From a virus (lineage: Duplodnaviria > Heunggongvirae > Uroviricota > Caudoviricetes), in the IMG/VR virus record IMGVR_UViG_3300045988_163275, positions 32,001 through 96,000 of that record: a DNA stretch of 64,000 bases; one strand, given 5' to 3'. The notes beneath the pieces are model-generated. The model was not told the DNA's origin. It was given only the letters and a program-made list of their open reading frames with translations, and ran no database searches. The translations under genes were made by a program, and so were the position numbers. Of the stretch, positions 2,909 to 62,260 are shown piece after piece (within the stretch, counting starts at the first letter, position 1; each line of letters starts with the position of its first letter).

Positions 2909-2927
2909 CATAAGTAAGTACTTACAA
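2909..2927. promoter_or_regulatory. palindromic operator-like motif B copy (TAAGTAAGTACTTAC)
   Basis: palindrome core TAAGTACTTA, 38 nt upstream of ATG 2871. Confidence 0.5.
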
Positions 2928-2935
2928 TACAAAAA

Positions 2936-2962
2936 AGCCCCGAAGGATTGGCGGGGCTGTCG
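2936..2962 (-). terminator. rho-independent terminator
   Basis: minus strand GCCCCG-loop-CGGGGC followed by TTTTTT, just 3' of stop of 2993..3304. Confidence 0.6.
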
Positions 2963-2992
2963 TACATTCGACTAACTACTGCTTGCACATGT

Positions 2993-3304
2993 TTAAGCTA
3001 CCGCCTGAACAGACGCTCGTTGGATCTCTTGTTGGGCGACACGGTTGGCTTCCATCAGCGCCAGTTCAAGCTGGTCCTCTGGCCACATTTTCTGGACCGA
3101 CATCCACCCTCTTCCACGCTGGCGACGAACTACCATCACATAGCGCGTAAAATTGCCCGCGTCGAAGGTAATGGCTTTTTCACGAAACAGACGGATAGAA
3201 GTCCCATTCGCTACGATATCCAGCAATGTGAGATGCCCCATTAAGGTTGGTTTTTCTTTTCTATCCTGGCCTTCAGCAAGACCCAGCACCAATGAAGTAT
3301 TCAT
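2993..3304 (-). CDS. hypothetical protein (103 aa)
   Basis: ATG at 3302-3304 with GGAG SD; track ORF extends to 3334 over motif A. Confidence 0.5.
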   Translation of the reverse strand: MNTSLVLGLAEGQDRKEKPTLMGHLTLLDIVANGTSIRLFREKAITFDAGNFTRYVMVVRRQRGRGWMSVQKMWPEDQLELALMEANRVAQQEIQRASVQAVA

Positions 3305-3314
3305 CACCACTCCG

Positions 3315-3350
3315 TAAACAAATTGTTTTCTCAATGGCGTAAATAATACC
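3315..3350 (-). promoter_or_regulatory. leader motif A copy
   Basis: AAACAAATTGTTTTCTCAATGGCGTAAATAATAC 11 nt upstream of ATG 3304. Confidence 0.5.
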
Positions 3351-3464
3351 AGTGTAAAAACGGCTACAAAGCATATTGCTCAGGCACATGAATTATCTAA
3401 AGGTGGTTCTGCCCTGCGGCTACAGAGAAGTTAAGCCAGCAGGCGGTGCTGGCTTTGGTTGGGC

Positions 3465-3794
3465 TTACGCGAATAACTCAAGGAATTCCTGCACGTCCCA
3501 ATGCTGGACAAGGTGAAGATAGAGCTTAGAAATCACGTCATTCTCGCTATCGCATGTGAAGTAGTACTTCTGGCTGCGGTTGTATGTGTCCACACAAAAT
3601 TCGCTCATATCCATAAAGTCAGCATCTTCACCCATGTCGCAAATAATCAAAGCAGGAGCATCATCACGAGTCATCAGCTCAAGCACCCAGCGCGAATTGA
3701 TCAGCGTGGAAGACCAACCTTCTAACTCATAAAACTGGTCAAACTCTTTTTGAGTCATTTTCTTGATTTGGTTGATGTCGATATTTGCAAACAT
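3465..3794 (-). CDS. hypothetical protein (109 aa)
   Basis: ATG at 3792-3794 with AAGGAT SD; track ORF extends to 3860. Confidence 0.5.
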   Translation of the reverse strand: MFANIDINQIKKMTQKEFDQFYELEGWSSTLINSRWVLELMTRDDAPALIICDMGEDADFMDMSEFCVDTYNRSQKYYFTCDSENDVISKLYLHLVQHWDVQEFLELFA

Positions 3795-3806
3795 AAAGCA
3801 ATCCTT

Positions 3807-3840
3807 AAACATGTTGTTTTCTGAATTGCGTAAACAATAC
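3807..3840 (-). promoter_or_regulatory. leader motif A copy
   Basis: AAACATGTTGTTTTCTGAATTGCGTAAACAATAC upstream of 3794. Confidence 0.5.
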
Positions 3841-9705: not shown

Positions 9706-9728
9706 GATTAGGTAAGTATTTACCTCTC
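9706..9728. promoter_or_regulatory. palindromic motif B copy
   Basis: GATTAGGTAAGTATTTACCTCTC between genes. Confidence 0.5.
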
Positions 9729-11412
9729 ATTTAACGCGTTTAAAAACGTATACGCTGACAGTAATCCCGGTGTCTTCAAACATGTTAGTAAACGACTTCC
9801 CTTTGGCATAAACGTAATTATCCAGCGTCATCCAGTTTAGAATTGGCGCGTCGCCCGGCAGCACTGCTACCAGACGCCCACCGACTTTCAGATGTCCCAG
9901 CGCGGCCAACGTGTGCTCTCTGTGACGGCCAAGAGAGTAGGGCGGGTTCATGACGATTTTGTCGAACTGATAACCTGCGTTGTCCTCAGACCACTTCATG
10001 AAGTCGCAGCAGACCGTATTTGTGTACCCCTTGCCAAGCAGGATATCAGCGAAGAGAGGTGCGACTTCTATGCAGGTAACGTCTTCCGGATTGGCGTCGA
10101 TGCAGGCCAGCAGATCTCCGCGCCCGGCTTCAGGCTCCAGCAGCTTCTCACCTGGCTTCAGCTCGATGGCTCTGGCAACGTACTCCGCTATCAAACGCGG
10201 GGTAGGGTAGAACTGGTGTGATTTTGTATCCGGTATTAAGCCGGTGGCCACAATCGTATTGAGCGTATGGCCGATCTCATACGGGAACTGCCAGTGCTTG
10301 TTCTCCTGCACGCCGCCAATAAAGCTCAGTGTACGCTCCAGCTCTTCCACCTGTGACTTCTGAAGACCGGAATCAGAGAAGTACCATACGCGTTTGTCAT
10401 TGCCAGATCGCCCGTCGCGAAGCGCAGTACGCACCGGCTCGGAGATCGTCTTCTGGATTAACCCGAACTGTTTTGGTGCCCGTGTTTTGGGCGCAGTACG
10501 ACATGGAGCCGGGATTGCAGCGGGCATACTGTAAGCCAGCACCTCATTCAGCTTCCAGGCTACGTCAGGATGTATTTCAAAGTGAACGTTGCCGTTCTTA
10601 AACATCTTCACACGCATCAGGTTTCCGTCGACATTCATCCAGTCGCCGGTCTGGCAGTCATTTGCTCGATACGCAGCTGACAGCATCTCGGCCGTGCGGT
10701 TGATGGTGATAAATTCTTTGTGTGCAAAGAAATGCAACATGACGCGCAGGTCGTCTATGTAATCCTCTTTCCGGTAGTTAACGCTGACGCTGTCCCGCCA
10801 GAAATCGGAAATGCAGTCGGCGATGATCAGACGCTCGCTGAAGCCGTTCGTCTTATTGGTCTTGTGAGCAGGACTCAACGCCTTAAACAAGCCATACACG
10901 CGCTCAGAGAGATATTTGTGCCTGTCATTCAGCAAATTAAGCATCGTTGGTATGACCGTTTCTGCTTTGAACTCAGGTACACCAACGAACTCTTTAACCT
11001 TCATTTGATAGCCAGTTCTGTCAGTCTTGATCGTTTCCTGCTTGCCCTCGATAAACTGTTCACGCCACTCGTCGCGGCGGGATGCTGGCATGATCAGCAG
11101 AACGTTGGTCATATCCGTGACCTTCTTCCAGTACTCGGCCCAGATATTTTGTTTCACCCATTCCAGGTCGACTTTGTCCAGCCAGGTTCTGTTAAAGCGT
11201 GTGCGCTCGTCGTCCGGCCGGTGGTTAAGTCGCAGTAGACGGTTAATCATGTTGTGGCGTTCGTCGCCATAAACGAAGTCGTGAACCTTATTCATGAACG
11301 CAATCTCTTTCTCGCATTCGGCCACAATTTCGTGGATAACATTCATTTCCTGCCGGTAGTCAATACCGGTGTCTGGAGTGATAGAGTCAATGATGGAAAG
11401 GGCTGTATTCAT
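9727..11412 (-). CDS. putative amino-methyltransferase (likely DNA N6-adenine) with large N-terminal domain of unknown function
   Basis: C-terminal FYPTP ... LEPEAGRGDLL ... VMNPPYS motifs (AdoMet motif I then NPPY); ATG 11410-11412 (track ORF starts TTG 11430). Confidence 0.55.
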   Translation of the reverse strand: MNTALSIIDSITPDTGIDYRQEMNVIHEIVAECEKEIAFMNKVHDFVYGDERHNMINRLLRLNHRPDDERTRFNRTWLDKVDLEWVKQNIWAEYWKKVTDMTNVLLIMPASRRDEWREQFIEGKQETIKTDRTGYQMKVKEFVGVPEFKAETVIPTMLNLLNDRHKYLSERVYGLFKALSPAHKTNKTNGFSERLIIADCISDFWRDSVSVNYRKEDYIDDLRVMLHFFAHKEFITINRTAEMLSAAYRANDCQTGDWMNVDGNLMRVKMFKNGNVHFEIHPDVAWKLNEVLAYSMPAAIPAPCRTAPKTRAPKQFGLIQKTISEPVRTALRDGRSGNDKRVWYFSDSGLQKSQVEELERTLSFIGGVQENKHWQFPYEIGHTLNTIVATGLIPDTKSHQFYPTPRLIAEYVARAIELKPGEKLLEPEAGRGDLLACIDANPEDVTCIEVAPLFADILLGKGYTNTVCCDFMKWSEDNAGYQFDKIVMNPPYSLGRHREHTLAALGHLKVGGRLVAVLPGDAPILNWMTLDNYVYAKGKSFTNMFEDTGITVSVYVFKRVK

Positions 11413-11423
11413 GATTGCACCAT

Positions 11424-11456
11424 TAAACAAATTGTTTTCTTATTGGTGTTATTTTC
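11424..11456 (-). promoter_or_regulatory. leader motif A copy
   Basis: TAAACAAATTGTTTTCTTATTGGTGTTATTTTCTC upstream of 11412. Confidence 0.5.
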
Positions 11457-12333: not shown

Positions 12334-13293
12334 ATGTTTGGTAATCTTTTCAAAACGGAAGAAACTAAGGCCCGGGAGGGCTTGGAGTCTCATTATCAGA
12401 AAGTCATGAGCTTCGTTGCTGAAAATGATCTACATGAAGCATGGGAAAAAACACGCAATATCATTTTTCGAAATATGGAAGTTAGAAGCTACATCACGCA
12501 AAACGGCGCGTTCGATCGTAACGATTTTTACTATAAGTCAGCCAAAGAGAAGCTTATTCAAAGCGCCTTCACTTCATACCTACTCATAAAAGTTTTACCT
12601 CAGTTCTATGAAATGCATCTCACCACTTTGAAAAGAAAAGAAAAAACACTCACAACACAGGATGAATACGGGGTCTGGAACTTTGACAAGTGGTTTGATG
12701 AAGTAGACTACTTTTATGACAAGGTAGTAAAAGAGAAAGTTTACGATTGGATCGAAGAGAACACAGGCCGGCTCAACAACCTTTGGTTGGCAGAGTCGGA
12801 GGACAAGAATGCCTGGGGGCGGCCAGTTTACTTTAAATTCCAGTTGCCTGAACAATTTGATCGCTGCGCAATAAATCACATTATGACGGTGGTAGACAAT
12901 ACACCAGAACCTGAATTACCTGAGTACACTTCGCTACTGACCGGGCACGAATATGAGCATTTTGTCGCTGGGGAGTTTATGAAGTATGGATCCGACACCC
13001 AAGTAACTAAGGGCAGCGGCGATCACGGTCTGGATATCCTTGTAACCTATAGAGAAGTTCGAATGGCTGTTCAGTGCAAACACTACCAGTCTAAAGTAGG
13101 CAACAAAGCTATTCAGGAAGCATTTTCCGCGAAACAGTTCTACGATTGCTCCCTCGCAATAGTAGTCAGCAACAGCGAGTTTACCCCTCACGCCAGACAA
13201 GCAGCCAAAAAACTGGACGTTTATCTGTATCACCATGAAGATATACACTTAATAATAGACGCCATTAATAATTGGCTGGATGCGCCGGAGTGA
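12334..13293 (+). CDS. Mrr-like (PD-(D/E)xK) restriction endonuclease-domain protein, N-terminal domain unknown
   Basis: C-terminal GSGDHGLDILV ... VQCKHYQSKVGNKAIQEAF ... IVVSNSEFTPHARQAAKKLDVYL resembles Mrr catalytic domain; plus-strand, AT-rich, amid minus-strand genes. Confidence 0.6.
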   Translation: MFGNLFKTEETKAREGLESHYQKVMSFVAENDLHEAWEKTRNIIFRNMEVRSYITQNGAFDRNDFYYKSAKEKLIQSAFTSYLLIKVLPQFYEMHLTTLKRKEKTLTTQDEYGVWNFDKWFDEVDYFYDKVVKEKVYDWIEENTGRLNNLWLAESEDKNAWGRPVYFKFQLPEQFDRCAINHIMTVVDNTPEPELPEYTSLLTGHEYEHFVAGEFMKYGSDTQVTKGSGDHGLDILVTYREVRMAVQCKHYQSKVGNKAIQEAFSAKQFYDCSLAIVVSNSEFTPHARQAAKKLDVYLYHHEDIHLIIDAINNWLDAPE

Positions 13294-14151: not shown

Positions 14152-14175
14152 TAGTAGGTAAATACTTACTTATCT
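14152..14175. promoter_or_regulatory. palindromic motif B copy
   Basis: TAGTAGGTAAATACTTACTTATC 32 nt upstream of ATG 14120. Confidence 0.5.
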
Positions 14176-14177
14176 TT

Positions 14178-14774
14178 TTATGACAAAAACCCAATGTCAT
14201 GCTTGTGAGGCATATCAGCTGCGGAATAGGCGGCGATCTTCGCCAGACGGTCACACATTTCGTTCTCGCGATGACCTGCATGGCCTTTAACCCACTTCCA
14301 GCGGACATTATGACGACTGGCGGCCGCGTCGAGACGTTTCCAGAGATCCACGTTTTTGACTGGCTTCTTCTCAGACGTGATCCATCCGTTACGCTTCCAG
14401 CCTTTCATCCAGAGCGTCATGCCGTTTTTAAGATACTGGCTGTCGGAATGCAGGATCACGTTGCAGGGGTACTTCAGACGCTCCAGCGCAATCAGGGCGC
14501 CCATCATCTCCATCCGATTGTTGGTCGTGCTGTGGAAGCCCTCAGAAAGCTCGCGCTCTTCGCCTCGATACTGGAGAACGATGCCGTAACCGCCCGGCCC
14601 GCCCGGATTTTTGAGGCAGGAGCCATCACTGAATACTTTTACGGTTTTGAGCTGGGGATTGAACTCGACTACGGGTGTGTTGAAATTGGTACGGGAATGC
14701 TGGTGGGTTTGGCATCTGGCTTTAGACTTCGTGCGGCAGCCAGTGCGTTGCCGGACTGGGTTCTTGGTCGTCAT
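14178..14774 (-). CDS. rnhA: ribonuclease HI with ~40-aa basic N-terminal extension
   Basis: [18 protein letters not shown] ... [11 protein letters not shown] ... HSDSQY ... [13 protein letters not shown] ... [15 protein letters not shown] match RNase HI catalytic motifs; ATG 14772-14774 with GGAG SD. Confidence 0.85.
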
Positions 14775-15368
14775 TTTGGCTCCAGAATCGTGCGCCGCGA
14801 CGATTTTTGTTTTCTCGCGCGTGTGCGCACGCGTGCGTGTAAATAATAAAAAATTTTATAAAAGAAAAACTTACTTCCCAGAACAGGTTTTAATAAAACC
14901 TGAACTGAACGAACGAAGTGAGTGAAGTTCACCTCGAACGAAGTGAGAGGTTGTCTTTTCAGGTAATACTCTCCCAGGGAGGTGAGTACAAAATTTCCTC
15001 ACCAACCTGGTCGTTTCATAACCTGAAAAGTTATGACCTAAGTCTACTGCCAGCTTAGGCTTGGGAAGTTATGGATGACAGCACCCCAGAACCGAGATCT
15101 TCCCACACTTTATGAAGGGGAGTACTGGAATCAACCTCTCGAAACACTCCAGACTCGACAATCATAAAGTGACCCTTCTCTCTGCTCACTTTGGTTCCCC
15201 CTTCCCCAACCCCTAAACGGTGCTGGTTCTACGCTGGTAGTGAGCTTTTTTAAACCTGACGCCAGTGACGCAATCCCCCACCCATCAGGTCGAGCTGCCG
15301 AAAGTATCCGGAAGCGGATAGATTGTATCACTGGTTAGTGGCGCTTTGAATGGTAAGTACTTACCTAT
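14775..15368. other. ~600-bp ORF-poor structured non-coding region
   Basis: alternating GCGCGTGTGCGCACGCGTGCGTG tract, AT-rich block, direct repeat CGAACGAAGTGAG x2, several inverted repeats; only low-complexity ORF 15131..15331. Confidence 0.4.
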
Positions 15369-15370
15369 TA
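15349..15370. promoter_or_regulatory. palindromic motif B copy
   Basis: TGGTAAGTACTTACCTATTA; faces the non-coding region. Confidence 0.5.
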
Positions 15371-15598
15371 TATTGATTGATTAATTTCTCGCCCATGCAG
15401 CTGGACATTCAGAGCAAACACCTCATTGATCAGCTCACCCAACAACTGCTCCACCAGTTCTATGTGCTCGCCTGAATGAAGACACTTGAGCGACCATTCG
15501 TAGAGACTGAAAGCCTTATCGCGATCTTTCATCATGTCGCGTATCTTGGCCAGAAAATCGCTCTCAACGAGCGCTACGACGTTCGTCGGGTATATCAT
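15368..15598 (-). CDS. hypothetical protein (76 aa)
   Basis: ATG 15596-15598 with AAGGAAA SD. Confidence 0.5.
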   Translation of the reverse strand: MIYPTNVVALVESDFLAKIRDMMKDRDKAFSLYEWSLKCLHSGEHIELVEQLLGELINEVFALNVQLHGREINQSI

Positions 15599-15800: not shown

Positions 15801-16394
15801 TTACGCTGCCTTTTTACGTGGTCTCTTCTTCCTGACAACATTGGCAGGGTCATAACCACCCAGCTTTTTCATCACCGCCAGCGGTATCTTGCTGATGGTG
15901 TGCCCAGCTTCCTGACAGTAGCCACGGAAGATAAGCAACATGCTGCCACCAGGGTTGATGTTCACCTCCACCAGCCCAAGTTCAACATCCGGCTCAACGA
16001 ACGCCACGCGGCCGCCAGACAAGATGACGGTTTCGTTGGCGCATTCAGCCGCACGCTCGTACCACTGCGTATCGAGGGATTGTGGTATCAGCATGACCGT
16101 CGTCACTCCACGCGCCTGCTCGCGAATGGCTGCGTCTATCCAGGGGGTGATTTTGGAGTAGGGCGGGTTAAGGAACGCCACAGTGCCAGGTTCTCCCCAA
16201 CTGCACTTGAGCGCATCACGCTCAACACCGATAAAGTTCGGCAGGAGAGCATTATCTTTGTTGCAGGCGACGTCCACATCGAACTTTACGCCTATGTAAC
16301 GTTGGATGGCGACAAACAACCACTGCGGTGTGCGCCAAAGGTCGCGAAGAGAGGCATCACGCTCTCGCTTTTTGATTTTTTCGGCTGCGATCAT
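15801..16394 (-). CDS. dam: phage-type DNA N6-adenine methyltransferase (Dam family)
   Basis: DLWRTPQWLF ... DVACNKDNALLPNF ... FLNPPYS signature; ATG 16392-16394. Confidence 0.8.
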   Translation of the reverse strand: MIAAEKIKKRERDASLRDLWRTPQWLFVAIQRYIGVKFDVDVACNKDNALLPNFIGVERDALKCSWGEPGTVAFLNPPYSKITPWIDAAIREQARGVTTVMLIPQSLDTQWYERAAECANETVILSGGRVAFVEPDVELGLVEVNINPGGSMLLIFRGYCQEAGHTISKIPLAVMKKLGGYDPANVVRKKRPRKKAA

Positions 16395-16405: not shown

Positions 16406-16426
16406 GATAGGTAAATACTTACCTAT
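16406..16426. promoter_or_regulatory. palindromic motif B copy
   Basis: GATAGGTAAATACTTACCTAT 12 nt upstream of dam ATG. Confidence 0.55.
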
Positions 16427-41969: not shown

Positions 41970-41990
41970 TTGTTTTCGTTTTTATATCGG

Positions 41991-42211: not shown

Positions 42212-42230
42212 GATAAGTAAGTGATTATAT
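42212..42230. promoter_or_regulatory. palindromic motif B copy (degenerate)
   Basis: TGATAAGTAAGTGATTATA downstream of recA stop. Confidence 0.35.
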
Positions 42231-42270
42231 ATTTTCAAGGTATAAAGACGTCCATTCGGACGCCTGAAAA

Positions 42271-46900: not shown

Positions 46901-46986
46901 GTATTTCTCCTTGTTGTGATTGTGGCCATTGGCGCTATGCGCATTGGGCGTTCGTTTGTTCGTGGCTCTTTCGAGCGAGAAGAATG

Positions 46987-47010
46987 ATAGATCAGTACTT
47001 ACTTACTATC
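46987..47010. promoter_or_regulatory. palindromic motif B copy
   Basis: GATAGATCAGTACTTACTTACTATC upstream of SSB gene. Confidence 0.5.
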
Positions 47011-47019
47011 TAGCATAAA

Positions 47020-47560: not shown

Positions 47561-48121
47561 ATGGGGATAATTCTGATAACCTGTAGTCAGTACTGCGTAG
47601 TCGCAGATGCTCTGTATAGCCACGGTTGCGATGATGCGCTCATTTGCTACTACGGAAACTCAGTGTATGTAGAATTTGACCGAGAAGCTAAATCTTTAGA
47701 TGAAGCAATCGAATCGGCAATCCTTGATATTGAAACAGCAGGCATTGGCGCAGTGGTGGAATCGGTAGATTCAGCACTGGTAGGCTTGAGCGATATTGCT
47801 CAACTCTCTGGCTTAACGCGCCAGGCTATTACTCTGCTTAAAGACGGATTACGTGGCAAAGGTGATTTTCCTTGCCCTGTTCAGCGTATCAGCGGTCAGT
47901 CTCCACTCTGGGACTGGGCGGAAGTCGCTAAATGGTTGAATGACTGCGGTCGTCTTGACAGCAAAGACGAAAAAGCACGGGAAGAACTGGTGCGTAACGC
48001 GCGCACATTGAGTACGTGGAATCTTGCCCTGCGTATAAGATCGTTGGGCGACATTCATGAGGTGGAGAGAGTTACTCGCTCACTCAGTCACTCGCAAGAC
48101 TGCGAAAAAATTTGCGCATAA
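47561..48121 (+). CDS. putative transcriptional regulator with AlpA-like HTH C-terminal domain
   Basis: LSDIAQLSGLTRQAITLLKDGLRGKGDFPCPVQRISGQSPLWDWAEVAKWL; terminator follows; start uncertain. Confidence 0.45.
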   Translation: MGIILITCSQYCVVADALYSHGCDDALICYYGNSVYVEFDREAKSLDEAIESAILDIETAGIGAVVESVDSALVGLSDIAQLSGLTRQAITLLKDGLRGKGDFPCPVQRISGQSPLWDWAEVAKWLNDCGRLDSKDEKAREELVRNARTLSTWNLALRIRSLGDIHEVERVTRSLSHSQDCEKICA

Positions 48122-51836: not shown

Positions 51837-53072
51837 TTAACCAAAGATCTTCTGAACCACTTCACGCGCTGCCTGTGCAGACGTGGATGGAAGTTTATTG
51901 ATAAACGACTTTTCGATGCCGGCAGAGAAATCACCGCGCATCATTCCGATTTTGGCGGACAGCAGCAGCTCACGAGGCCCGATTGGCTGGCTAATCTGAT
52001 GCTTTTCATAACCTTCACGGATAAGATTCGCGAACTTCACCATCTTCTCGGCGTATTCGCGGATGACGCCTGCTTCAGCCAGCATGTTGACTTCTGCCTT
52101 CGTACTCATGTACTTCACGTTTGAAACAATGCCAAAACGCGAGAAGTTCGCTGCGTTCTGGATGTTTGTGCCTTGATAGAGACCTGTTTCGTCGCCAGAG
52201 CCGTTAGTGTTGCCAGTGCCAATGAAGGCAAAGCGTTTATGCGGGGTGATGCGGCGCCAGTCCGCAGTTGCCTCTTTGATGATCAGCGGCTCTCCTTCAA
52301 GAACTGGCTGATACACACCCAGAATCTGCGGGAACGCGAAGTCATATTCATCAGCGAGGTAAACCCAACCATTTTTCATCGCCAGCGCTAGTAAACCCGG
52401 TTCGAAATAGGTGGAACCATCGCGAGCGAGGATCTGGCCTGTAACGTGCGCTTCCTCCATAGACGCCGTATGCTGGGCGCGGATCAGTGGTCGATTTAGC
52501 AGGGCACATAGCTGCGTAGGAAGAGAAGATTTACCGGTTCCTGCATGGCCCCAGAGATAACCCGGGATTCCGATTTCCAGCATCATAAAGATGTCTTTGA
52601 TCAGGTCGAAGTCGCCATACACATAGTTTTTCTTCGCTTCCGGTACGAACTCCGGATAGGGCGTGTTGACGTTGACTGTCACCTGTAGTGGCTTTCCGCG
52701 TGGCGTTCCCAGCTCTTTGATCGTTACGCCAAGCAGCTCGTGCGCGGCCACCAGTTCGGTCTTGTATTCGACCGTTCCTGCGTAGCCCGGATGTGCGCTA
52801 ATCTCCGCTACTTTTCCTTCGCCTGAATGCTTTTCGGCACGCTTCTCATTGAGTTTGGCCAGTGCCGTGCGAGAGATCGTTGGTTCATCTGGAAACGCAG
52901 AGGTGTACATCTTCACCACTTCGTCCACGTCCAGACCCTTCGCAGACTCAGGAATATTCTCGCAACGGCCCATAGAGATATGGGATTTCAGGTAATGAAA
53001 GGATTTGCCACACCACTTGCAGACGATGGCTTCCGGCAAATGTTCTTCTTGCTGTAGTGCAGTAGCGGTCAT
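51837..53072 (-). CDS. AAA+ ATPase (MoxR/CobS-like) with N-terminal zinc finger
   Basis: CKWCGKSF ... GRCEN; Walker A GHAGTGKSS; Walker B YLADEYDF; AAGGAAAA SD. Confidence 0.7.
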   Translation of the reverse strand: MTATALQQEEHLPEAIVCKWCGKSFHYLKSHISMGRCENIPESAKGLDVDEVVKMYTSAFPDEPTISRTALAKLNEKRAEKHSGEGKVAEISAHPGYAGTVEYKTELVAAHELLGVTIKELGTPRGKPLQVTVNVNTPYPEFVPEAKKNYVYGDFDLIKDIFMMLEIGIPGYLWGHAGTGKSSLPTQLCALLNRPLIRAQHTASMEEAHVTGQILARDGSTYFEPGLLALAMKNGWVYLADEYDFAFPQILGVYQPVLEGEPLIIKEATADWRRITPHKRFAFIGTGNTNGSGDETGLYQGTNIQNAANFSRFGIVSNVKYMSTKAEVNMLAEAGVIREYAEKMVKFANLIREGYEKHQISQPIGPRELLLSAKIGMMRGDFSAGIEKSFINKLPSTSAQAAREVVQKIFG

Positions 53073-53131
53073 GTTTTTTCCTTACTGTTTGTCGTTTGTG
53101 GGGTATATCTTATAGAAATATATTAGGCTGT

Positions 53132-53150
53132 ATAGTAAGTAGTTACTTAT
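53132..53150. promoter_or_regulatory. palindromic motif B copy
   Basis: ATAGTAAGTAGTTACTTAT upstream of the AAA+ gene. Confidence 0.45.
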
Positions 53151-53167: not shown

Positions 53168-55399
53168 TTACCAAAGAATGATACGAGATAACTCAGTGAC
53201 GACTGACGGCCCTAACTCTTCAACACTGTTAACCAGTGCGTAATTTTTGTAGTAACGCCGTGGTTCGTCGGTCAGAATGCCGATAGCCATCAGTTCGATG
53301 TCGCTCAAGGTCTCAATTTCTTTGGTGACGGTTCGTAAATGCTGATGGAATCCACTACCTGTAGCACATGGCTCCCCATCACTCATAACCAGCATGATCT
53401 TTTTGTCCTCCATTCGCCCTGCAAACAGGGTAGCCAGTTGCGCGACACTCTCACCATCGACGTTATTGAGCAGGGGGAACGTCTCACATACGCATCCCAT
53501 GCGAGCACGGATCTCTGGAGAGTTTGCTTTCTCATTCCAGTTTTTGATAATGGGCAGCATGAGCGCCTCGAAGCGTGTAAACCCGCGCTTCGACCTGGTT
53601 TCATAATCTGGGCTACCGAACGTGGTAAAGCCGGTGATGATGTTGGGGACATTGATACGATCTAAAGCATCCGCAATGGTATAGGCACTGGCTAGGGCCA
53701 GTTGAATCTTCACGCCATCCATTGAGCCGGACAAGTCGATGACCTGCTGGACACACGCATTCACCGCTCTATGGTCTTCCTTCTTGCGGAACACTCGGTC
53801 GTCGTTCATTGCCAGACGATACAGGCTCGCGCCATGTATCCGCCCACGCCTCTGACCAGGTATAAACTGAACTCGGTTGCGGCTGGCGATGGCCCGCTCC
53901 AGGTCTTTGGCCAGCGTCGAAGAAACGCCTGCAGACAGATGTTTTTCGATTTTCAGTTCAAAGAGTTTTCTGCCTTCTGGCACCATACGGTAGCGGTCGA
54001 CTGGTGAGTGCATTGGTATTGCACCGAACGTCTTTCTGGTGCGCTTCACATGCTCTTCGGCTCCATCAATCAACCCGATAAAGTCGTATGATCGATCGTA
54101 TGGCCGATAATCAGAAGGTGAGACGCTCATAAGCTCTTTGCTGATGGTGGCCGACAGTGCGTCTTCGGTCATTTCACCGATTCCGTCTTCCATCTCGTCG
54201 AGCGCCTTTAGCGCCTCCTCCAGAGTCATTTCATCCGGCGCAGGAACAAAGCCAGACTCACTGTCTTTGGGCACTTCCGCACCATCTTTATTTTTTTTGC
54301 CTTCGACGTCTTCTTCTTCAGTTTCCCCACGATCAGTATCGGAGTCCTCACCGCCATCACCATCGGTGTCAGAGTCACTTGATTTCATGCCGATAGCATC
54401 GGATTCTGGGGTGTCTCCTGACTCTTCGTGGCCTGCTTCTGTATATTTACTTTCTGTATCACTAATATCTTTAACGTGTGTAGGTAAGTCCTTATCTAAC
54501 GAATCAGGCAAATCGGAATCCCCAGAATCTTCCTCTTCTGATGCATCATCTTCTCGTTCTTCCTTGTCATCGCCTTCGCCTTTGGCAGGCTTAGATGCAG
54601 AGTCACCATGAGATGGCTCGTCACCTGATTCTGGCGTTTCCTCGGACTCGTCTTTGCTCTCCGACGGATTTCTGGCAGATGATTTAAGTTCTGGTAATTT
54701 GCCCTCTGGCTTGTCTTTCATATCCTGCATGATTTGGGCTATAGCAGCAGCGACCTTCACGCAATCCTCAGTGTTCGACATATTGCGAACGGCCACGTCT
54801 ATACCATGCTCCTTTAGTAAGGCTACCGGCCTCTCGATAAGGCGCCAGTGTTCTTCCATAAAATCGATGAAGGGGCTTTGTCCATCCCAGGCGCGGACGA
54901 CCGGGCAAAGGAAGAATTTCAAAAACAATTCACGCTGGTCTCCGTGACAGGCTAAAACCGCTTCTGGTACTTTATTCCTGAAGTATTTGTCGATAACCAG
55001 ACTCTGTGTTGCAAGTAAATTACGCCGGGTTCCGTTAAAGACCTGCCCCATTCTGCGTTCAATAAAAACGTCTTCCAGCGCATTCCAAAGCCCCGTAGAC
55101 GGAGCCTTTCCTCTTTCGCGCATCTGCATTGCGACTTTCGGTTCAGTAAAGAGAATATGGGCCACCTCATGGTCGAGAAAACCACGCACTGCGTTCATGA
55201 GGGTTGGCGACGCGTCGTCCGGTATAGATGGGATGTTTACCAGCACTGGTTCGCCGCGCCGGTTATAGCGGACATATGCTTCATTGCCTCGTTCTGCAAC
55301 AGGTATCTGTTTACCTGAAAGCATCGCTACAACTCGTTTTACACAGTCGCGAAAATCCTGCACCTCTTTCAGTACAGCTTTGGTGGTTTTTTTGGACAT
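53168..55399 (-). CDS. von Willebrand factor A (vWA) domain protein with acidic low-complexity linker
   Basis: C-terminal MIDAS DLSGSMDG and LVMSDGEP; central D/E/S-rich region; ATG 55397-55399 with AAGGGAA SD (track ORF extends to 55468). Confidence 0.7.
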   Translation of the reverse strand: MSKKTTKAVLKEVQDFRDCVKRVVAMLSGKQIPVAERGNEAYVRYNRRGEPVLVNIPSIPDDASPTLMNAVRGFLDHEVAHILFTEPKVAMQMRERGKAPSTGLWNALEDVFIERRMGQVFNGTRRNLLATQSLVIDKYFRNKVPEAVLACHGDQRELFLKFFLCPVVRAWDGQSPFIDFMEEHWRLIERPVALLKEHGIDVAVRNMSNTEDCVKVAAAIAQIMQDMKDKPEGKLPELKSSARNPSESKDESEETPESGDEPSHGDSASKPAKGEGDDKEEREDDASEEEDSGDSDLPDSLDKDLPTHVKDISDTESKYTEAGHEESGDTPESDAIGMKSSDSDTDGDGGEDSDTDRGETEEEDVEGKKNKDGAEVPKDSESGFVPAPDEMTLEEALKALDEMEDGIGEMTEDALSATISKELMSVSPSDYRPYDRSYDFIGLIDGAEEHVKRTRKTFGAIPMHSPVDRYRMVPEGRKLFELKIEKHLSAGVSSTLAKDLERAIASRNRVQFIPGQRRGRIHGASLYRLAMNDDRVFRKKEDHRAVNACVQQVIDLSGSMDGVKIQLALASAYTIADALDRINVPNIITGFTTFGSPDYETRSKRGFTRFEALMLPIIKNWNEKANSPEIRARMGCVCETFPLLNNVDGESVAQLATLFAGRMEDKKIMLVMSDGEPCATGSGFHQHLRTVTKEIETLSDIELMAIGILTDEPRRYYKNYALVNSVEELGPSVVTELSRIILW

Positions 55400-55426
55400 T
55401 AGAATTCCCTTGTTGTTAAAACAATT

Positions 55427-55460
55427 TGTTTTCTGATGTGCGTAATTTATCACTGTACGA
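55427..55460 (-). promoter_or_regulatory. leader motif A copy
   Basis: TAAAACAATTTGTTTTCTGATGTGCGTAATTTATC upstream of 55399. Confidence 0.5.
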
Positions 55461-55511
55461 ACAGGCATCTAATCTGTTCGTACAGGCGCTAGAGAGGATG
55501 GGAGGGGGGTG

Positions 55512-55724
55512 TTAAATTGTGCGGACGGCTACTGAACCGCAGCCGGTATTGATGAGAGTGAAGCACTTGCCCTTTAGCTCAAAGATGTATGCGGTTGCGT
55601 CTTTCATGCCAAGTAACAAAGACTTTGTTGGCAGTTCAGTGAGTATGGCTGCTGCCCCGTCAGCGTCAATTGAAACCGTATGTCCGACCTTAAGGGCGAT
55701 CAAATTAGAAGTTATTTTTTTCAT
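55512..55724 (-). CDS. hypothetical protein (70 aa)
   Basis: ATG 55722-55724; weak SD. Confidence 0.35.
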   Translation of the reverse strand: MKKITSNLIALKVGHTVSIDADGAAAILTELPTKSLLLGMKDATAYIFELKGKCFTLINTGCGSVAVRTI

Positions 55725-55932
55725 TTCATATCATCCAACTGAACACGTAAATGCCTTGCAATACTACTACCTATTGTATCAATACGGAATACTTATATAT
55801 CAAATACAACTTAGTTTTAAGTTCTTAAATGAGTTGTTTTTTAGATAGTTGTCTATTAATGAAGCCTTTTGCGGTCAATAACTCTACGAAAAAAAATAGA
55901 TAAGTCTTTACAACACTAACCTTTGATGTAAT

Positions 55933-55952
55933 ATCAGTAAGCACTTACCATA
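55933..55952. promoter_or_regulatory. palindromic motif B copy upstream of XRE regulator gene
   Basis: ATCAGTAAGCACTTACCATA ~30 nt upstream of ATG 55981. Confidence 0.5.
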
Positions 55953-55980: not shown

Positions 55981-56370
55981 ATGGCTACCAACGAAATAAC
56001 AGAAGCTAAAGTAGGTCGCTATGCTGCTTACATTGACGCTTTAATCGCGATTTCTCCGAAAAGCCAGGCGACCATCGCGAAAGAAGCAGGCTATAAAAAT
56101 CCTAACAATCTTTCACTTATCAAGAGCGGCAAAATCCCGCTTCCGATCGACAAGGTCAGAGCGTTGGCTAAAGCATTGGATGCCGATTCGGTCCGATTGA
56201 TGCTAATGGTGCTGGAAGAGCGTCATCCAGAGCTGTTAGCGTTTTTTCGCGACGAAGGCACAGCCCCTCTGACTAAAGATGAAAAACTAGTTCTGGAAGC
56301 CTTCCGTCGACGTTTCGGTGACCAACGTGGTGCGTCGGAGCGGGTTGTTGAGGCAATCAAGTCGCTATGA
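55981..56370 (+). CDS. XRE-family helix-turn-helix transcriptional regulator (candidate repressor)
   Basis: SQATIAKEAGYKNPNNLSLIKSGKIPLPIDKVRALAKAL; divergent from lytic-type operon, convergent with recombinase. Confidence 0.55.
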   Translation: MATNEITEAKVGRYAAYIDALIAISPKSQATIAKEAGYKNPNNLSLIKSGKIPLPIDKVRALAKALDADSVRLMLMVLEERHPELLAFFRDEGTAPLTKDEKLVLEAFRRRFGDQRGASERVVEAIKSL

Positions 56371-57493: not shown

Positions 57494-57513
57494 TACTGTA
57501 TATATAAACAGTA
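57494..57513. promoter_or_regulatory. LexA (SOS) box
   Basis: TACTGTATATATAAACAGTA = CTGT-N8-ACAG with AT-rich spacer, ~26 bp upstream of recombinase ATG. Confidence 0.65.
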
Positions 57514-58764: not shown

Positions 58765-59010
58765 TTACAGAGTGCTCGCAAAAGCAGCAAATTCTGTATA
58801 GCCGCCGATAGGATCACCATTAACGAACACCTGCGGTATGGTTTCCACCGGTTTGCCAACCAGGTCGCTCAACTTCTCTTTGTCGATGCCGGCAGACACA
58901 ATATCGATGTATTCGTAATCGCCAAAGCCGTGGCCGTGCAGCTGCTTCGCCAGCTCGACCGCACGTTTGCAGTATGAGCAATTATCGCGTCCGTAGATAA
59001 CGACCTTCAT
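58765..59010 (-). CDS. glutaredoxin-like protein
   Basis: VVIYGRDNCSYCKRAVELAK with CxxC site and C-terminal VFVNGDPIGGYTEF; ATG overlaps PhoH-like stop. Confidence 0.8.
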   Translation of the reverse strand: MKVVIYGRDNCSYCKRAVELAKQLHGHGFGDYEYIDIVSAGIDKEKLSDLVGKPVETIPQVFVNGDPIGGYTEFAAFASTL

Positions 59011-59630
59011 CACTTCGCCTCGTGCAGCTGCTGCTTGAGAAGATAGCCTTCCAGCGGCCAGATTTTGGCAATCGCGTTCTGACGTGTAATTTTACGCCCG
59101 ATCTCCGGGTCAAAGTTCTCCGGGCTGGCGCACGCAGACTCGCCGGTTACGGTAAAGCCGTTCTTGGCCACCTCTGGCTTTAAGCAATATTCAAGGAATG
59201 AGCCACCCAAACGCTTCTGTAGCACGTCATAGACGGGCCGGAAGAACGGAGCGAACTTCTCGCTCATGTCGCCCGGAAGGAAGCCCAGATCTTCTTCTGC
59301 TTGCAATACCGGACGCGTCACGATGATCTTCCCGACTTCCTTATCCAGCAGACGCTGCGCTGCGACGGCAGCAGCCAGGTAGGTTTTGCCGCAGCCGGCT
59401 TCACCAGTGGCGAACGTCAGAGATTTGGTGTCGAGGGAGATAAGATAGTGGGCCTGGGCCTCGTTTCGCGCTTCGATGGGAGAGTTGTCGCGTTTAGGTT
59501 TTGGTGGCAGAGCAGGGGCGACAGCCAGCTCGTCAACGATGATTGTGTCAATTTCGTAGCCGTGGATGCGTGGCTTTGACTTCAGTGCCTGACGAGCTGC
59601 GCGACGCGCCTGTTTACGTTTGTTTCCCAT
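59010..59630 (-). CDS. PhoH-like P-loop ATPase lacking the usual C-terminal half
   Basis: FATGEAGCGKTYLAAAVAAQ ... IIVTRPVLQAEEDLGFLPGDMSEKFAPFFRPVYD; ATG 59628-59630 with AAAGGA SD. Confidence 0.65.
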   Translation of the reverse strand: MGNKRKQARRAARQALKSKPRIHGYEIDTIIVDELAVAPALPPKPKRDNSPIEARNEAQAHYLISLDTKSLTFATGEAGCGKTYLAAAVAAQRLLDKEVGKIIVTRPVLQAEEDLGFLPGDMSEKFAPFFRPVYDVLQKRLGGSFLEYCLKPEVAKNGFTVTGESACASPENFDPEIGRKITRQNAIAKIWPLEGYLLKQQLHEAK

Positions 59631-59676
59631 ATTGAGTCCTTTCAAGTGAGTAACTGAAAGAACTATACCGACAAAT

Positions 59677-59697
59677 AATAGGTAAGTCATTACCTAT
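59677..59697. promoter_or_regulatory. palindromic motif B copy
   Basis: AATAGGTAAGTCATTACCTAT 47 nt upstream of PhoH-like ATG. Confidence 0.5.
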
Positions 59698-59743
59698 TTT
59701 TCGTGCATTATCCCTCTACCATGTAGAGGGATATCGTCATGAC

Positions 59744-60532
59744 TCACGGCAGTTTTGCTCTAATTTCGAGTAATTTCTGTGCCGTTATGCTGATTTCATA
59801 CGCCAAATCTTGTGTTTGGTTAATGATTCCGTAATAGCGCTCAACCTGATCAGGATAAAAACGTCTGATATGGGGGATATCGATATAATCATAATACCCA
59901 AGCCCTCCAGCAGAATGTTCTCTGAACAGCGCCCAAAAGTTGTTCACTTTCCCGACCAACTCCATACGGATTGTTTCTAAAACAACATCATTGAAGCTGT
60001 AAAAGGGGTTATGGGCAATATTATCAAATGCGTAGAGAGGGTCGGTAATGTCGGTGCTAACTTTTGCCCGGAACTGTTCGCTCTTCAGAATTTGGAGGTA
60101 GTTGTAATTAAAAATATCAGTAATGGCTTTTAAAACACCGACATCTCTTTCTGAGTAATTGTTCTGACTCACCTGGTGCGTCATCTGAAGCAGAAGAGAT
60201 TGTTGAGTTTCGGCCAGCTGCTTCCAGTTTTTCAATTGCTCAACGGAATAGATAGTGTAGTCAGAGTCAATGAGTGCGCCATGTGAACGACACATCCATA
60301 TACCGTTATCAATCGAGCTTCGCTGTTCTGGGGTCAAGCTAGGATCATATCTCGGTCCACCCGGCGCTGCTGCTGTAATATGTGCCGCGATACCATTATT
60401 AATCCTGCCGTTTGTATCACTGCTATCTGGGCCGACTGTTACCTGGTTGCATCCAAGAAAAGAGCACTTCCAGCCTACGCGTTCGGCTAGTGTTCGCTTC
60501 ACCGATGGAGAAAAATCATCTCTGTTACTCAC
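59744..60532 (-). CDS. HNH nuclease-domain protein with C-terminal region of unknown function
   Basis: KCSFLGCNQ ... IAAHITAAAPGGPRY ... NGIWMCRSHGALID; probable GTG start with GAGGT SD. Confidence 0.55.
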   Translation of the reverse strand: MSNRDDFSPSVKRTLAERVGWKCSFLGCNQVTVGPDSSDTNGRINNGIAAHITAAAPGGPRYDPSLTPEQRSSIDNGIWMCRSHGALIDSDYTIYSVEQLKNWKQLAETQQSLLLQMTHQVSQNNYSERDVGVLKAITDIFNYNYLQILKSEQFRAKVSTDITDPLYAFDNIAHNPFYSFNDVVLETIRMELVGKVNNFWALFREHSAGGLGYYDYIDIPHIRRFYPDQVERYYGIINQTQDLAYEISITAQKLLEIRAKLP

Positions 60533-60571
60533 GTTTACCTCGCTGTGTTTAAACAATCTTATGGCTATTTG

Positions 60572-61126
60572 TTAGTGGCGTTTATCTTCTTCCAGACGAG
60601 CCGTTTTTAATTGTTTATCGGTAAAGGTAAGCAACGTTACGCCCTCTTTTTCGTTCAAAAGGCCTGCACCGTTAATCACCATTACTAACCGATCCTTCCC
60701 TCGATAGACTTCATAATACTTGCCCGCACCACAGGTCTTTGTCTCAATACAGTCCATACCAGATATAGCTTCTTGGTCGAAAATTCTGTCTTTCGTTGCT
60801 ACCGGTTTTCCGTACTCCTTTGTCAGCATTTCACCGATCTGCATGAACGTATACTTGCCGACATTTGTCGTTAAAGACGATTCAACCTTTCCATCAATGA
60901 GATTGCCATACGTATGCGGTTCCTGCTCCTTCGGTGCATTTTTATCTTGAAGTGCGAAGGCTTCAATATTGGGTGTTTGCTCTTGGAACTGGGCTTTATA
61001 GTTCTGTGCAAGATCGCTTTTATCTCTACCTATTAAGGTGATTTTGTCGATCTCCGACTCGTTACATCCCGTCAGAGCGAACGCGATCACCAGAGATGCG
61101 AGAATATTGAGGTTGCGCTTTTTCAT
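60572..61126 (-). CDS. lipoprotein (184 aa)
   Basis: MKKRNLNILASLVIAFALTGC lipobox; ATG 61124-61126 with GGAG SD. Confidence 0.55.
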   Translation of the reverse strand: MKKRNLNILASLVIAFALTGCNESEIDKITLIGRDKSDLAQNYKAQFQEQTPNIEAFALQDKNAPKEQEPHTYGNLIDGKVESSLTTNVGKYTFMQIGEMLTKEYGKPVATKDRIFDQEAISGMDCIETKTCGAGKYYEVYRGKDRLVMVINGAGLLNEKEGVTLLTFTDKQLKTARLEEDKRH

Positions 61127-61428
61127 TGGCTTATCTCCATGTTTTACTGCCACATCCTATCACCCACATGCAGGCAGTCTAATGCTGCCGTTGCTAAATG
61201 AAGGCCCAAAGGTGGTAAAACCATACGTGGAAATATTCTGGAGTCAACCCAGCAAAAAAGGGGCCGAAGCCCCTTTGATTTTTGCGCTAAAAAGTGTTGG
61301 TACAATGCTAAGAAGCAATGGTTAAGAACGTCTGCCGTGTCTATCACAGCGCTGAACGGTCTGGCGACATTTGCGGAGTCTTTCCGTTCGGACGGTGGTG
61401 GCGAACTCCAAACCGTTCAGCGCTATGT

Positions 61429-61503
61429 TGGCGATGGTGGGTGGACTCGAACCACCGACCAGTTGATTAACAGTCAACCGCTCTACCACTGAGCTACACC
61501 ATC
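61429..61503 (-). tRNA. tRNA-Asn (anticodon GTT), CCA encoded
   Basis: hand-folded cloverleaf: acceptor GATGGTG/CACCATC, anticodon stem GTTGA/TCAAC with loop CTGTTAA, T-arm GGTGGTTCGAGTCCACC; differs from E. coli tRNA-Asn. Confidence 0.85.
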
Positions 61504-62233
61504 ATTTTTCGCGGCGGTACTTGTTCATGGACAACCAGGCAACCAAGAACTTTCCCGCAACTTGCACTTTACGTTAGTGCCAGACGAGGCTTGTGGCTCG
61601 CTCACATAGAGCGAAGATCTGGAATCCTTCTCGGCTGTTGATGGCCGCCAGACTCTTCGATCTTATTGGATGTATGGAATCATCCATGTTGTGAAACCAG
61701 GGGCTACATAGGCAACAATGATTTCACCAGAGGGTTAAAGAATCCTGCTTTCACAACGTTGAGGCCACTGAACCGATTTATGTTCGACCCAACATATTGA
61801 TCAGTCACTACAGCTCTGTGGAATCACCTGTATGATTAAAAGAAAAACAGTGACCTCAACGTTGTGCGCTGGCTAACCAAGCCAGCCGGGTTACGTCGCC
61901 GCTTTTAACCCAAGATTAAACGACATAAGTAATGGAAATGACGTAACAGGATGGACGGTCAGCTGGCTGAAACCGGGATGATGGAATGGAATGAGGAAAC
62001 CAACCGCCCATCCTGTTACTTCATCGAATAGGGCATGGGTGGTGCAACATGCCCTATCCTGCGTTCTGCAATCACACTCGCTCAGTGTGTCCCATTTCGG
62101 TGACGAGGCTGGAAACTGACCTCGCTGGTGTTTGGCTTCTTAGGCTACTGCCAGGTATGCATCTTCGTTTGCAGTTATATTTAACGTTCAAACAGTCGCA
62201 TCTCAACGAAAACAAAGTGATCTTATACATATT

Positions 62234-62260
62234 AGATAAGTAAGTAAATACTTATCTATC
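62234..62260. promoter_or_regulatory. palindromic motif B copy
   Basis: TAGATAAGTAAGTAAATACTTATCTATC overlapping stop of 62252..62557. Confidence 0.5.

Follow-up and report, generated by a model that had tools for sequence, protein, structure and literature searches.

Introduction

This report concerns a 20-bp palindrome, ATAGGTAAGTACTTACCTAT, that recurs between the phage genes of a 64,000-nt stretch of DNA (hereafter the window), corresponding to positions 32,001 to 96,000 of the IMG/VR record IMGVR_UViG_3300045988_163275, a member of the Caudoviricetes. The window constitutes ~60% of an E. coli phage-plasmid of the SSU5 type, since its 9-24 kb region exhibits 94.5% identity to Salmonella phage SSU5 and ~99% identity to many 96-115-kb E. 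coli IncFIB plasmids, while pYLPI6a and p1919D62-2 are both collinear with it. To our knowledge, the lysis-lysogeny control of SSU5-like phage-plasmids is essentially undescribed. No description of the palindrome was found in the searchable literature, either by sequence or as SSU5 plus palindrome, and a 2026 preprint on phage-plasmids treats an unrelated family. Among described systems, the closest in distribution are the gp71 stoperators of mycobacteriophage L5 (Cluster A), which number 25–30, occupy short gaps in both early and late operons, often lie right behind stop codons and have been proposed to block transcription genome-wide in the lysogen; they are asymmetric 13-bp sites having one orientation relative to transcription. 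In the plasmid prophage P1, a single repressor, C1, recognizes many operators dispersed over a genome of ~100 kb ahead of its lytic functions. C1 operators are asymmetric 17-bp sites with the consensus ATTGCTCTAATAAATTT, whereas the late promoters of P1 contain a palindrome centered near -22, upstream of the -10 box, which is read by the activator Lpa. The KorA and KorB proteins of plasmid RK2/RP4 recognize dispersed short palindromes (OA and OB, the latter being TTTAGCSGCTAAA), some of which are located at promoters and others at a distance, to coordinately repress many operons. Lastly, the CI and Cro proteins of lambda, 434 and P22, as well as the controller (C) proteins of restriction-modification systems, bind palindromes with half-sites about one helical turn apart, several of which are found between a repressor gene and its divergent neighbor.

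We consider it probable that the palindromes of the window are genome-wide operators for a dimeric repressor encoded by the element itself, most likely the XRE-fold protein specified at 55981-56370. As with P1, this would be a plasmid prophage in which one repressor serves many operators. However, the site is a perfect dyad of 20–26 bp, the candidate binder is a small XRE-fold protein, and the same site also marks the late operons of relatives, whereas P1 late genes use a separate activator. A search of the window with the C1 consensus ATTGCTCTAATAAATTT yielded one match at three mismatches versus 0.28 expected, and 24 of 100 shuffles did equally well. This chance-level result, together with the symmetry of the site, rules out membership among P1 C1 operators. 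Thus, the P1-type dispersed operators proposed in the original prediction hold as a functional logic, but not as a match to the P1 sites. A stoperator-like distribution, by comparison, was found, as the genomes examined contain 22–28 sites each in the short gaps of early and late operons. Unlike stoperators, these sites are symmetric and without orientation, and both the phage type and the repressor family are unrelated to those of L5. The RK2/RP4 operators have other sequences, KorB is a ParB-family CTPase, and the genes under its control encode plasmid functions rather than phage lytic functions. The CI-Cro and C-protein systems share the fold of the candidate, but they employ 2–6 operators in one or two regions as opposed to ~27 genome-wide here. 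The XRE protein also lacks the S24 cleavage domain, and the divergent 70-aa open reading frame (ORF) lacks a Cro-like fold. Similar to the P1 Lpa promoters, the palindrome would lie ~20 bp upstream of a start with a -10 box behind it and is repeated before many phage operons, except that the -10-like hexamer is symmetric and limited to about half of the sites, which also precede early DNA-metabolism genes. Overall, the system fits the class of XRE/Cro-CI-type repressors with palindromic operators, having an unusually large, genome-wide operator set.

A dispersed palindrome among the phage genes of the window

The original prediction described eighteen copies of a 20-bp palindrome in the intergenic regions between 2909 and 62260, and the observation of a dispersed palindrome is confirmed. 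At up to six mismatches from ATAGGTAAGTACTTACCTAT there are 19 matches, which represent 18 sites (the matches at 62236 and 62240 being a single site read in two registers) spanning 2910 to 62259. Nine sites occur within three mismatches, compared to none in 100 dinucleotide shuffles, and a symmetrised position weight matrix (PWM) identifies 16 sites of at least 20 bits plus ~6 weaker ones, compared to ~1.8 sites above 10 bits in Markov shuffles. The consensus had been given correctly, though the exact 20-mer ATAGGTAAGTACTTACCTAT never occurs in the window, its best copy having a single mismatch at 16407; in Klebsiella phage pJN2-26, it is found twice in perfect form. A recurring core had also been reported, which is true of the motif family, but the exact 10-bp core TAAGTACTTA has only three occurrences in the window. 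Likewise, the intergenic location applies to 17 of the 18 sites and fails for the copy at 54480, which resides within the CobT-like coding sequence. As this copy is conserved in several relatives, among them p1919D62-2 (40610) and pJN2-26 (91932), it may well be a regulatory site within the gene and not a match that arose by chance. The placement described between stop codons and the next starts agrees with the mapped sites, and all of the neighbors that had been named (dam, thyA, sbcD-like, gp32-type single-stranded DNA-binding protein (SSB), AAA_5 ATPase, PhoH-like and XRE) were recovered. The 18 sites and the weaker PWM copy at 55896 are as follows, with genes marked by strand and scores in bits.

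2910-2929: ATAAGTAAGTACTTACAATA, between ORF 2476-2871 and ORF 2993-3334, 38 nt to the ATG; 20.6
9708-9727: over the stop of the DUF4942 gene (9727-11430, minus), 43 nt to the next ATG (9664); 22.2
14154-14173: after the RNase H-like ORF (14178-14774, minus); 24.8
15349-15368: over the stop of a 76-aa ORF (15368-15598, minus); 25.3
16407-16426: best copy of the window, 12 nt upstream of the dam methyltransferase ATG (15801-16394, minus); 27.8
21250-21269: ~17 nt upstream of the thymidylate synthase (thyA) start (20129-21232, minus); 27.3
21400-21419: weak, over the stop of the MazG-like gene (21412-22290, minus); 17.2
22525-22544: 11 nt past the stop of the RuvC-like gene (22556-23125, minus); 25.8
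27957-27976: 115 nt upstream of the SbcD-like metallophosphoesterase gene (26756-27841, minus); 25.4
31976-31995: ends 1 nt from the ATG of a 59-aa ORF (31795-31974, minus); 20.4
32303-32322: abuts a Shine-Dalgarno sequence (AAGGAG), 13 nt to the ATG of a 91-aa ORF (32014-32289, minus); 23.7
42213-42232: after the RecA/LAGLIDADG gene (42271-44610, minus) and a terminator-like hairpin (42233-42262); 21.0
46987-47006: 86 nt upstream of the gp32-type SSB gene (45884-46900, minus); 21.4
53131-53150: weak, in the gap between the CobT-like and AAA_5 ATPase (51837-53072, minus) genes, 58 nt to the ATG; 20.0
54480-54499: the sole non-intergenic copy, inside the CobT-like coding sequence (53168-55468, minus); 21.2
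55896-55915: weak, with a good left half only (ATAGATAAGT), over the -35 of the predicted XRE promoter; 13.3
55933-55952: 28 nt ahead of the XRE ATG, with outer triplets that are deviant yet conserved (ATCAGTAAGCACTTACCATA); 16.4
59678-59697: 47 nt upstream of the PhoH-like gene (59010 to ~59630, minus); 25.5
62236-62259: two registers 4 nt apart, over the stop of ORF 62252-62557 (minus), upstream of the tRNA-Asn region; 25.0 and 23.1

Six mismatches are present at 21400, 53131 and 55933. Nearly all phage genes of the window, as called from the annotation of relatives, are carried by the minus strand, with the following exceptions.

29626-30681, plus: repA
32.4-42.1 kb, plus: low-GC helicase/type III restriction-modification island
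47561-48121, plus: helix-turn-helix (HTH) gene
55981-56370, plus: XRE gene

A PWM scan of the window detected no copy at repA and no strong copy in the restriction-modification island. The palindrome marks phage genes and not those of the plasmid state, in agreement with the earlier proposal tying it to lytic operons.

Many palindromes are paired with a separate GC-rich hairpin resembling an intrinsic terminator (22495-22544, 21326-21419, 2930-2960 and 42233-42262). The hairpin is found immediately upstream at 2910 (directly before the copy, at 2930-2960) and 42213, or immediately downstream, as at 22525 (hairpin 22518-22495) and after the capsid gene in relatives; in the downstream arrangement, a start site would fall within the 5' arm of the terminator. 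The 21250 copy has a separate GC-rich terminator upstream (21349-21326).

Conservation among relatives and absence from host chromosomes

The PWM trained on the window identifies 22–28 sites each in p1919D62-2, Cyrano and pJN2-26 (about 77–80% DNA identity), in the same intergenic positions, and the same motif occurs at orthologous positions in these three genomes as well as in pCAV1015 and Moellerella plasmids. For Cyrano, which has a curated annotation with 87% coding DNA, 21 of the 22 PWM sites are intergenic (binomial p = 6e-18), with the next start codon located 1–160 nt past the end of the palindrome and the palindrome itself often beginning no more than 14 nt after the preceding stop. 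The 9708 copy has orthologues at Cyrano 84620 and pJN2-26 20935, and an alignment of the dam upstream regions from the window, Cyrano and pJN2-26 reveals that the palindrome and its 11–12-nt spacing to the ATG are retained, whereas the intervening sequence differs. Even the deviant center of the 31976 copy, which is altered to a -10-like TAGCAT, recurs in Cyrano and pJN2-26 (TAGCAT/TAGTAT). Since complete relatives also have sites in their late structural operons, including the terL-portal gap, the portal 3' end, the region behind the gene for the major capsid protein, gaps between tail genes and the region before the holin gene, the motif marks the whole phage program and not the early genes alone. 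In PWM scans of the window, p1919D62-2 and Cyrano, accessory islands were free of copies, as were repA and the genes for partition and toxin-antitoxin functions.

The exact 18-mer TAGGTAAGTACTTACCTA is present at 30 IMG/VR loci, 30/30 of which are SSU5-like. A BLAST search of 5,426 complete E. coli genomes using a 30-nt extended consensus matched 640 places on plasmids and none on the chromosomes, which makes a host regulon very unlikely.

A concerted change of specificity and a candidate binder

A distant relative, Acinetobacter baumannii pPB364_1, lacks the enterobacterial motif. In its place are ~33 copies (versus 3.3 expected) of another palindrome of the same design, ATCAGTCAGTACTGACTGAT. 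These copies are intergenic and associated with early and late genes alike, and include copies in the terL-portal gap, upstream of gp32 and, in three instances, within the XRE intergenic region. For ~6 of them, the downstream end is replaced by a -10-like TATACT. Examples include:

pPB364_1 (loci L045-L047) 1486, 29791, 53607, 84090, 91490 and 98132: Acinetobacter variant palindrome

The whole set of ~30 sites has changed in concert at the same positions, as would be expected only of a binder that the element itself encodes and that evolves together with the sites; the binder is very likely of this kind. Among the other distant relatives, Moellerella pNX2019-MW3 retains ATARGTA-N6-TACYTAT with a free center, while pCAV1015-111 retains ATAAGTAAG...TTACTTAT and has four copies between its XRE gene and first lytic gene. 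The earlier reading of a site for a dimeric regulator of the element is supported by this concerted change and by the symmetry of the half-sites.

A plausible binder is the following protein, judged by its predicted fold and gene context.

55981-56370, plus: candidate binder of 129 aa with an XRE/Cro-CI-type HTH fold, beside the integrase gene and oriented against the lytic genes
55907-55934, plus: predicted sigma-70-like XRE promoter, TTTACA-16-TAATAT (consensus match only)
55512-55724, minus: 70-aa ORF divergent from XRE, in a Cro-like position, conserved in all lineages

An AlphaFold2 (AF2) model of the XRE protein has a predicted local distance difference test (pLDDT) score of 80–89 over residues 11–70, and its Foldseek matches include C.AhdI (template modeling (TM) score 0.78–0.82 on the target), C.BclI, ClgR, lambda cI, 434 repressor, SinR and Stl, with modest E-values of 0.006–0.08. 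Searches of Pfam, NCBIfam and PDB sequences returned nothing for the XRE protein or the neighboring small ORFs. The protein is 65–67% identical to CYRAN_45 of Cyrano, which is annotated as a "putative repressor". In the published table of genes whose expression exceeds background in the Cyrano lysogen (PMC9928086), CYRAN_45 is the sole candidate for DNA binding. Homologs are encoded by essentially all family members, with matching counts by genus; that of Moellerella is 43% identical, that of Acinetobacter (pPB364_1 46806-47270) 39% identical, and that of pCAV1015-111 is just 101 aa in length. The putative recognition helix reads NN(L/I)S(L/M)IKSG in all lineages having the ATARGTA half-site and NVLSMIKSGE in Acinetobacter. 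Scans for further XRE specificity classes found, among genome contigs, only close Enterobacterales loci plus three alphaproteobacterial loci devoid of the motif and, among viral contigs, only relatives of at least 60% identity.

The XRE promoter region contains 1–4 palindromes per lineage (E. coli, Cyrano, pJN2-26, Moellerella, pCAV1015 and Acinetobacter), with equivalent copies at a distance of 28–32 nt from the XRE start codon in Cyrano, pJN2-26 and pCAV1015; in Moellerella and Acinetobacter, this distance is greater. In the window, the 55933 copy overlaps the end of the predicted -10 as well as the inferred start site of the XRE gene. The earlier designation of the 55981-56370 product as an XRE protein and candidate binder is supported by its fold and by motif copies that overlie its predicted promoter throughout the lineages analyzed. 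The evidence linking it to the sites is consistent and circumstantial. The divergent 70-aa ORF was also considered as a Cro analog and rejected, as its model is of low confidence, with weak Roadblock-like fold matches only and no DNA-binding fold found.

A perfect LexA-box-like sequence, CTGTATATATAAACAG, is located at 57496-57511 in the gap between the YafO-toxin and integrase genes, with 28 nt separating it from the start of the latter (57468, minus). Given that ciprofloxacin induces Cyrano (PMC9928086), this sequence could tie the element to the SOS response.

Relation of the palindromes to promoters

In 60 kb, 11 of 40 sigma-70-like matches overlap palindromes compared to ~0.6 expected from positions alone, a figure that is inflated by AT-rich intergenic DNA, and 9 of these 11 are oriented in the direction of the genes. 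A clear case is gp32. In a six-lineage alignment of its upstream region, the palindrome occupies the same place in 6/6, and the -35 and -10 hexamers, which were read in the window, pCAV1015 and Acinetobacter (the other three lineages being judged by palindrome position), are TAGATA, TTGATA and TTGAAA, respectively, followed by a 17–18-bp spacer and TATCAT/TATACT. The spacer consists of the palindrome particular to each lineage, including the Acinetobacter variant. In the window, this corresponds to TAGATA-17-TATCAT at 47012-46984, encompassing the 46987 copy. The portal 3' site is similar (TTGAAA-17-TATGAT/TATCAT), and the 42213 copy forms the spacer and -10 of TTGAAA-17-TATCAT (42238-42210), in which 10 of 12 consensus positions are matched. 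Two further copies overlap promoter-like matches, TTAACA-16-TAGCAT (32011-31984) at 31976 and ATGACT-17-TATAGT at 59678, such that, as sequence matches, the overlap between operator and core promoter is clear at gp32, the portal 3' end, 42213, 31976 and 59678.

Elsewhere, the arrangement differs. The -35 lies inside the palindrome at 2910 (TTGTAA-17-TAAAAT, minus strand, 2927-2899) and 21400 (TTGTAA-17-TATATT, minus strand, 21421-21393). The 15349 copy is associated with an extended -10 promoter-like site (15350-15322, minus strand), the 14154 copy is immediately followed by TATAAT on the coding strand, and the 27957 copy has TTGTCA-16-TATTCT just downstream (27951-27924). The register between palindrome and promoter therefore varies from site to site, which fits operators and not activator sites. 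Furthermore, because the gp32, portal 3' and 42213 promoters are near the sigma-70 consensus, they should require a repressor rather than an activator for their control. The many copies lacking a promoter may be roadblocks, or their promoters may have been missed by simple matrices.

Alternative explanations

If the palindrome acted as RNA, it would form a hairpin serving as a terminator, as a processing or stabilizing element, or as the target of a translational repressor. This is suggested by its intergenic location, often 1–50 nt ahead of start codons, by the folding of some copies at -7 to -8 kcal/mol (z below -3.8), and by the T run behind the 27957 copy, but we find it scarcely credible given the pattern of conservation. 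Among 97 non-redundant sites pooled from five genomes and oriented by transcription, T6 and A15 are invariant (97/97) and lie 9–10 bp apart, about one helical turn, with flanks that are also symmetric (roughly ATR-ATAGGTAAGTACTTACCTAT-YAT). Positions 4 and 17, by contrast, are statistically independent (AC 24, GT 21, GC 20 and AT 19), and mirrored positions overall include G·U-type combinations about as often as A·C-type combinations (79 versus 67, p = 0.36). Folding energies of the window copies range from 0 to -8.3 kcal/mol, and the three that fold poorly (0 to -1.8 kcal/mol) still keep both half-site sequences. Moreover, a U tract follows few copies only, the distance to the start codon varies from 1 to 160 nt, and the real GC-rich terminators are distinct hairpins adjacent to some of the palindromes. 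Because the half-site sequence is conserved and symmetric while pairing is not, the palindrome bears the signature of a double-stranded DNA site in which two half-sites would be contacted by a dimeric protein; the absent pairing constraint and the copies without a fold largely rule out an RNA hairpin or terminator. The notion that the motif is the site of a host transcription factor or nucleoid protein, or else a passive repeat, for example a linker for recombination or a miniature mobile element, has just as negligible a probability. The motif is indeed conserved over many host genera, and repeats at module boundaries could promote mosaic exchange. Nevertheless, the zero chromosomal copies in 5,426 E. 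coli genomes led us to reject a host-factor site, the exact 18-mer is confined to SSU5-like viral contigs, and the whole set is altered at the same positions in the Acinetobacter lineage. For a passive repeat, one also encounters unrelated flanks, no target-site duplications and no longer repeat units.

The two remaining alternatives both accept a protein-bound DNA site encoded by the element. In one, lytic promoters analogous to those served by P1 Lpa would depend on an activator encoded by the element, which would recognize them by the palindrome and switch these genes on after induction. A -10-like TATYAT beginning at the last triplet of the palindrome (position 18) is present in 48% of sites, which would place the dyad center near -20; a good -35 is lacking at most sites, and sites precede nearly every lytic operon, as do the phage-specific promoters of T4- and P1-type phages. 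However, the mirrored hexamer is found in 49% of sites. Being equally frequent on both sides, it belongs to the symmetric 26-bp site and carries no directional signal, which, together with a marginal -35 asymmetry, argues against a directional promoter element. In addition, half of the sites lack a -10 at any fixed offset and no other offset is enriched, the register to the promoter hexamers varies, and some near-consensus sigma-70 promoters (TTGAAA-17-TATCAT/TATGAT) should need no activator. We therefore regard an activator as quite improbable. The other alternative retains the operator logic and assigns it to a different element-encoded protein, such as either of two ParB_N-domain proteins whose genes, as seen in relatives, reside upstream of the terminase genes outside the window; this protein would bind the dispersed palindromes and silence many operons in the manner of RK2 KorB or N15 SopB. 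It is in keeping with symmetric, dispersed sites at variable distances to promoters, with the conservation of both ParB_N proteins in all lineages, Acinetobacter included, and with a palindrome in the divergent region upstream of the ParB_N operon in every lineage, and the covariation does not separate the candidate binders. Conversely, the list of genes expressed in the Cyrano lysogen includes the XRE homolog and no ParB_N gene (PMC9928086). Site clusters (up to 3–4) occur in the XRE intergenic region and not at the ParB_N operon, no HTH was detected beyond the ParB_N domain, and ~27 sites are far above known centromere sets. A ParB_N binder thus seems unlikely. Bolder still is the idea that the palindromes, instead of being classical promoter operators, are loading or anchoring sites of genome-wide silencing, either as roadblocks formed by a non-cleavable XRE repressor ("symmetric stoperators" at ~27 gene boundaries) or, more exotically, through KorB-like loading of the two ParB_N proteins of the CTPase type, which we would rate as a long shot. 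If either version were true, phage-plasmids would fall into immunity or incompatibility groups that extend across genera and are set by the Enterobacterales and Acinetobacter variants.

Proposed mechanism

Returning to the XRE-fold repressor, the sequence comparisons make it very likely that the palindrome is a DNA operator read by a dimer of the element's own making, and a repressor role for the regulator is likely. Protein binding, repression in preference to activation, and the XRE-fold protein as the binder are the parts of this scheme that we infer. Each site would comprise two half-sites of 7–10 bp (ATARGTAAG), with T6 and A15 separated by about one helical turn. During lysogeny, when the element is a plasmid, the XRE dimer would occupy ~25–30 sites per genome, 18 of which are in the window. 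Sites coinciding with a sigma-70 spacer, -10 or start would occlude the promoter, as at gp32, the portal 3' end, 42213 and the 59-aa ORF, whereas those directly behind stop codons would act as roadblocks to elongation. The weaker copies over the promoter of the XRE gene would presumably provide for autoregulation. Since the XRE protein has no S24 cleavage domain, SOS induction would be indirect.

Several observations weigh against this scheme. Only ~15 of the 97 sites score as full -35/-10 promoters, and many have no recognizable promoter. The asymmetry between forward and reverse promoters is weak (15 versus 4 sites, Wilcoxon p = 0.09), as it is in Acinetobacter (p = 0.24). Sites inside late operons, such as that of the 26–34-nt terL-portal gap, are unusual for promoter operators. 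The XRE protein has no Pfam match, and its model is confident for the N-terminal 70 residues only. Its link to the sites is based on two specificity classes, between which every protein of the element diverges, and the presence of a site near its own gene is weak evidence, because almost every operon has one. Lastly, a single operator specificity extends over the elements of E. coli, Salmonella, Klebsiella, Yersinia and Moellerella. Immunity repressors usually diversify, which makes such a shared specificity atypical.

Significance

Among SSU5-like elements are the Salmonella Typhi plasmid pHCM2, the Yersinia pestis plasmid pMT1 and numerous plasmids of 100-115 kb from E. coli, Klebsiella, Enterobacter and Acinetobacter, and PLSDB searches retrieved from 771 to about 1,000 records of the family. 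Some SSU5-like plasmids carry resistance genes, and the family has clinical relevance but has been little studied. For these elements, the palindrome is a ready-made map of transcription units and offers a prediction of homo-immune elements, which should be useful for annotation, for induction or curing strategies, and for engineering. It also presents a testable recognition code, in which ATAGGTAAG is paired with the helix NNLSLIKSGK and ATCAGTCAG with NVLSMIKSGE. No new kind of mechanism is revealed.

Other features of the window

A second, unrelated dispersed palindrome, AAACAAnTTGTTT, coexists with the first.

1183, 1668, 2418, 3316, 3807, 5387, 6954, 7383, 7699, 11425, 12146 and 55419: AAACAAnTTGTTT 13-mers

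On the coding (minus) strand, these are usually located ~13 nt downstream of an extended -10-like box (tGaGATAAT, GATAAT or TATTAT) and 10–25 nt upstream of a Shine-Dalgarno sequence plus ATG, and a few are directly behind a GC hairpin. They would thus fall at about +8 to +20 relative to the starts of a second class of promoters, or within a 5' untranslated region. Cyrano has 13 copies, pJN2-26 has 16 (including those before parA, terS, dnaB and the cobT-like gene), Moellerella has 0 and Acinetobacter has 2. As a matter of speculation, the FljA-like (PF03614) regulator of relatives might be the partner of AAACAAnTTGTTT.

Iteron-like 10-mers, ACAGTGGATA and ACTATCCACT, flank repA on both sides between 29079 and 31237 in 6–7 repeats. 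The plus-strand island at 32400-42150 (~41% GC) carries genes for a helicase-related protein of 1111 aa, for a DUF4391 protein, and for a methyltransferase together with a type III restriction enzyme, these gene names being transferred from p1919D62-2; relatives encode a type I system or nothing at this place. An opposite-strand restriction-endonuclease gene lies at 12334-13293 (plus), where close relatives encode a Rha-family regulator. The PhoH-like ORF at 59010-59690 (minus) is an apparent fusion or truncation, consisting of an N-terminal PhoH part (profile positions 2–101 of 205) followed by a Phage_gp49_66 domain, which in pJN2-26 are encoded by two separate genes. Finally, downstream of the 62236 palindrome there is a single tRNA-Asn gene (61429-61503, minus), at a place where Cyrano has three tRNAs.

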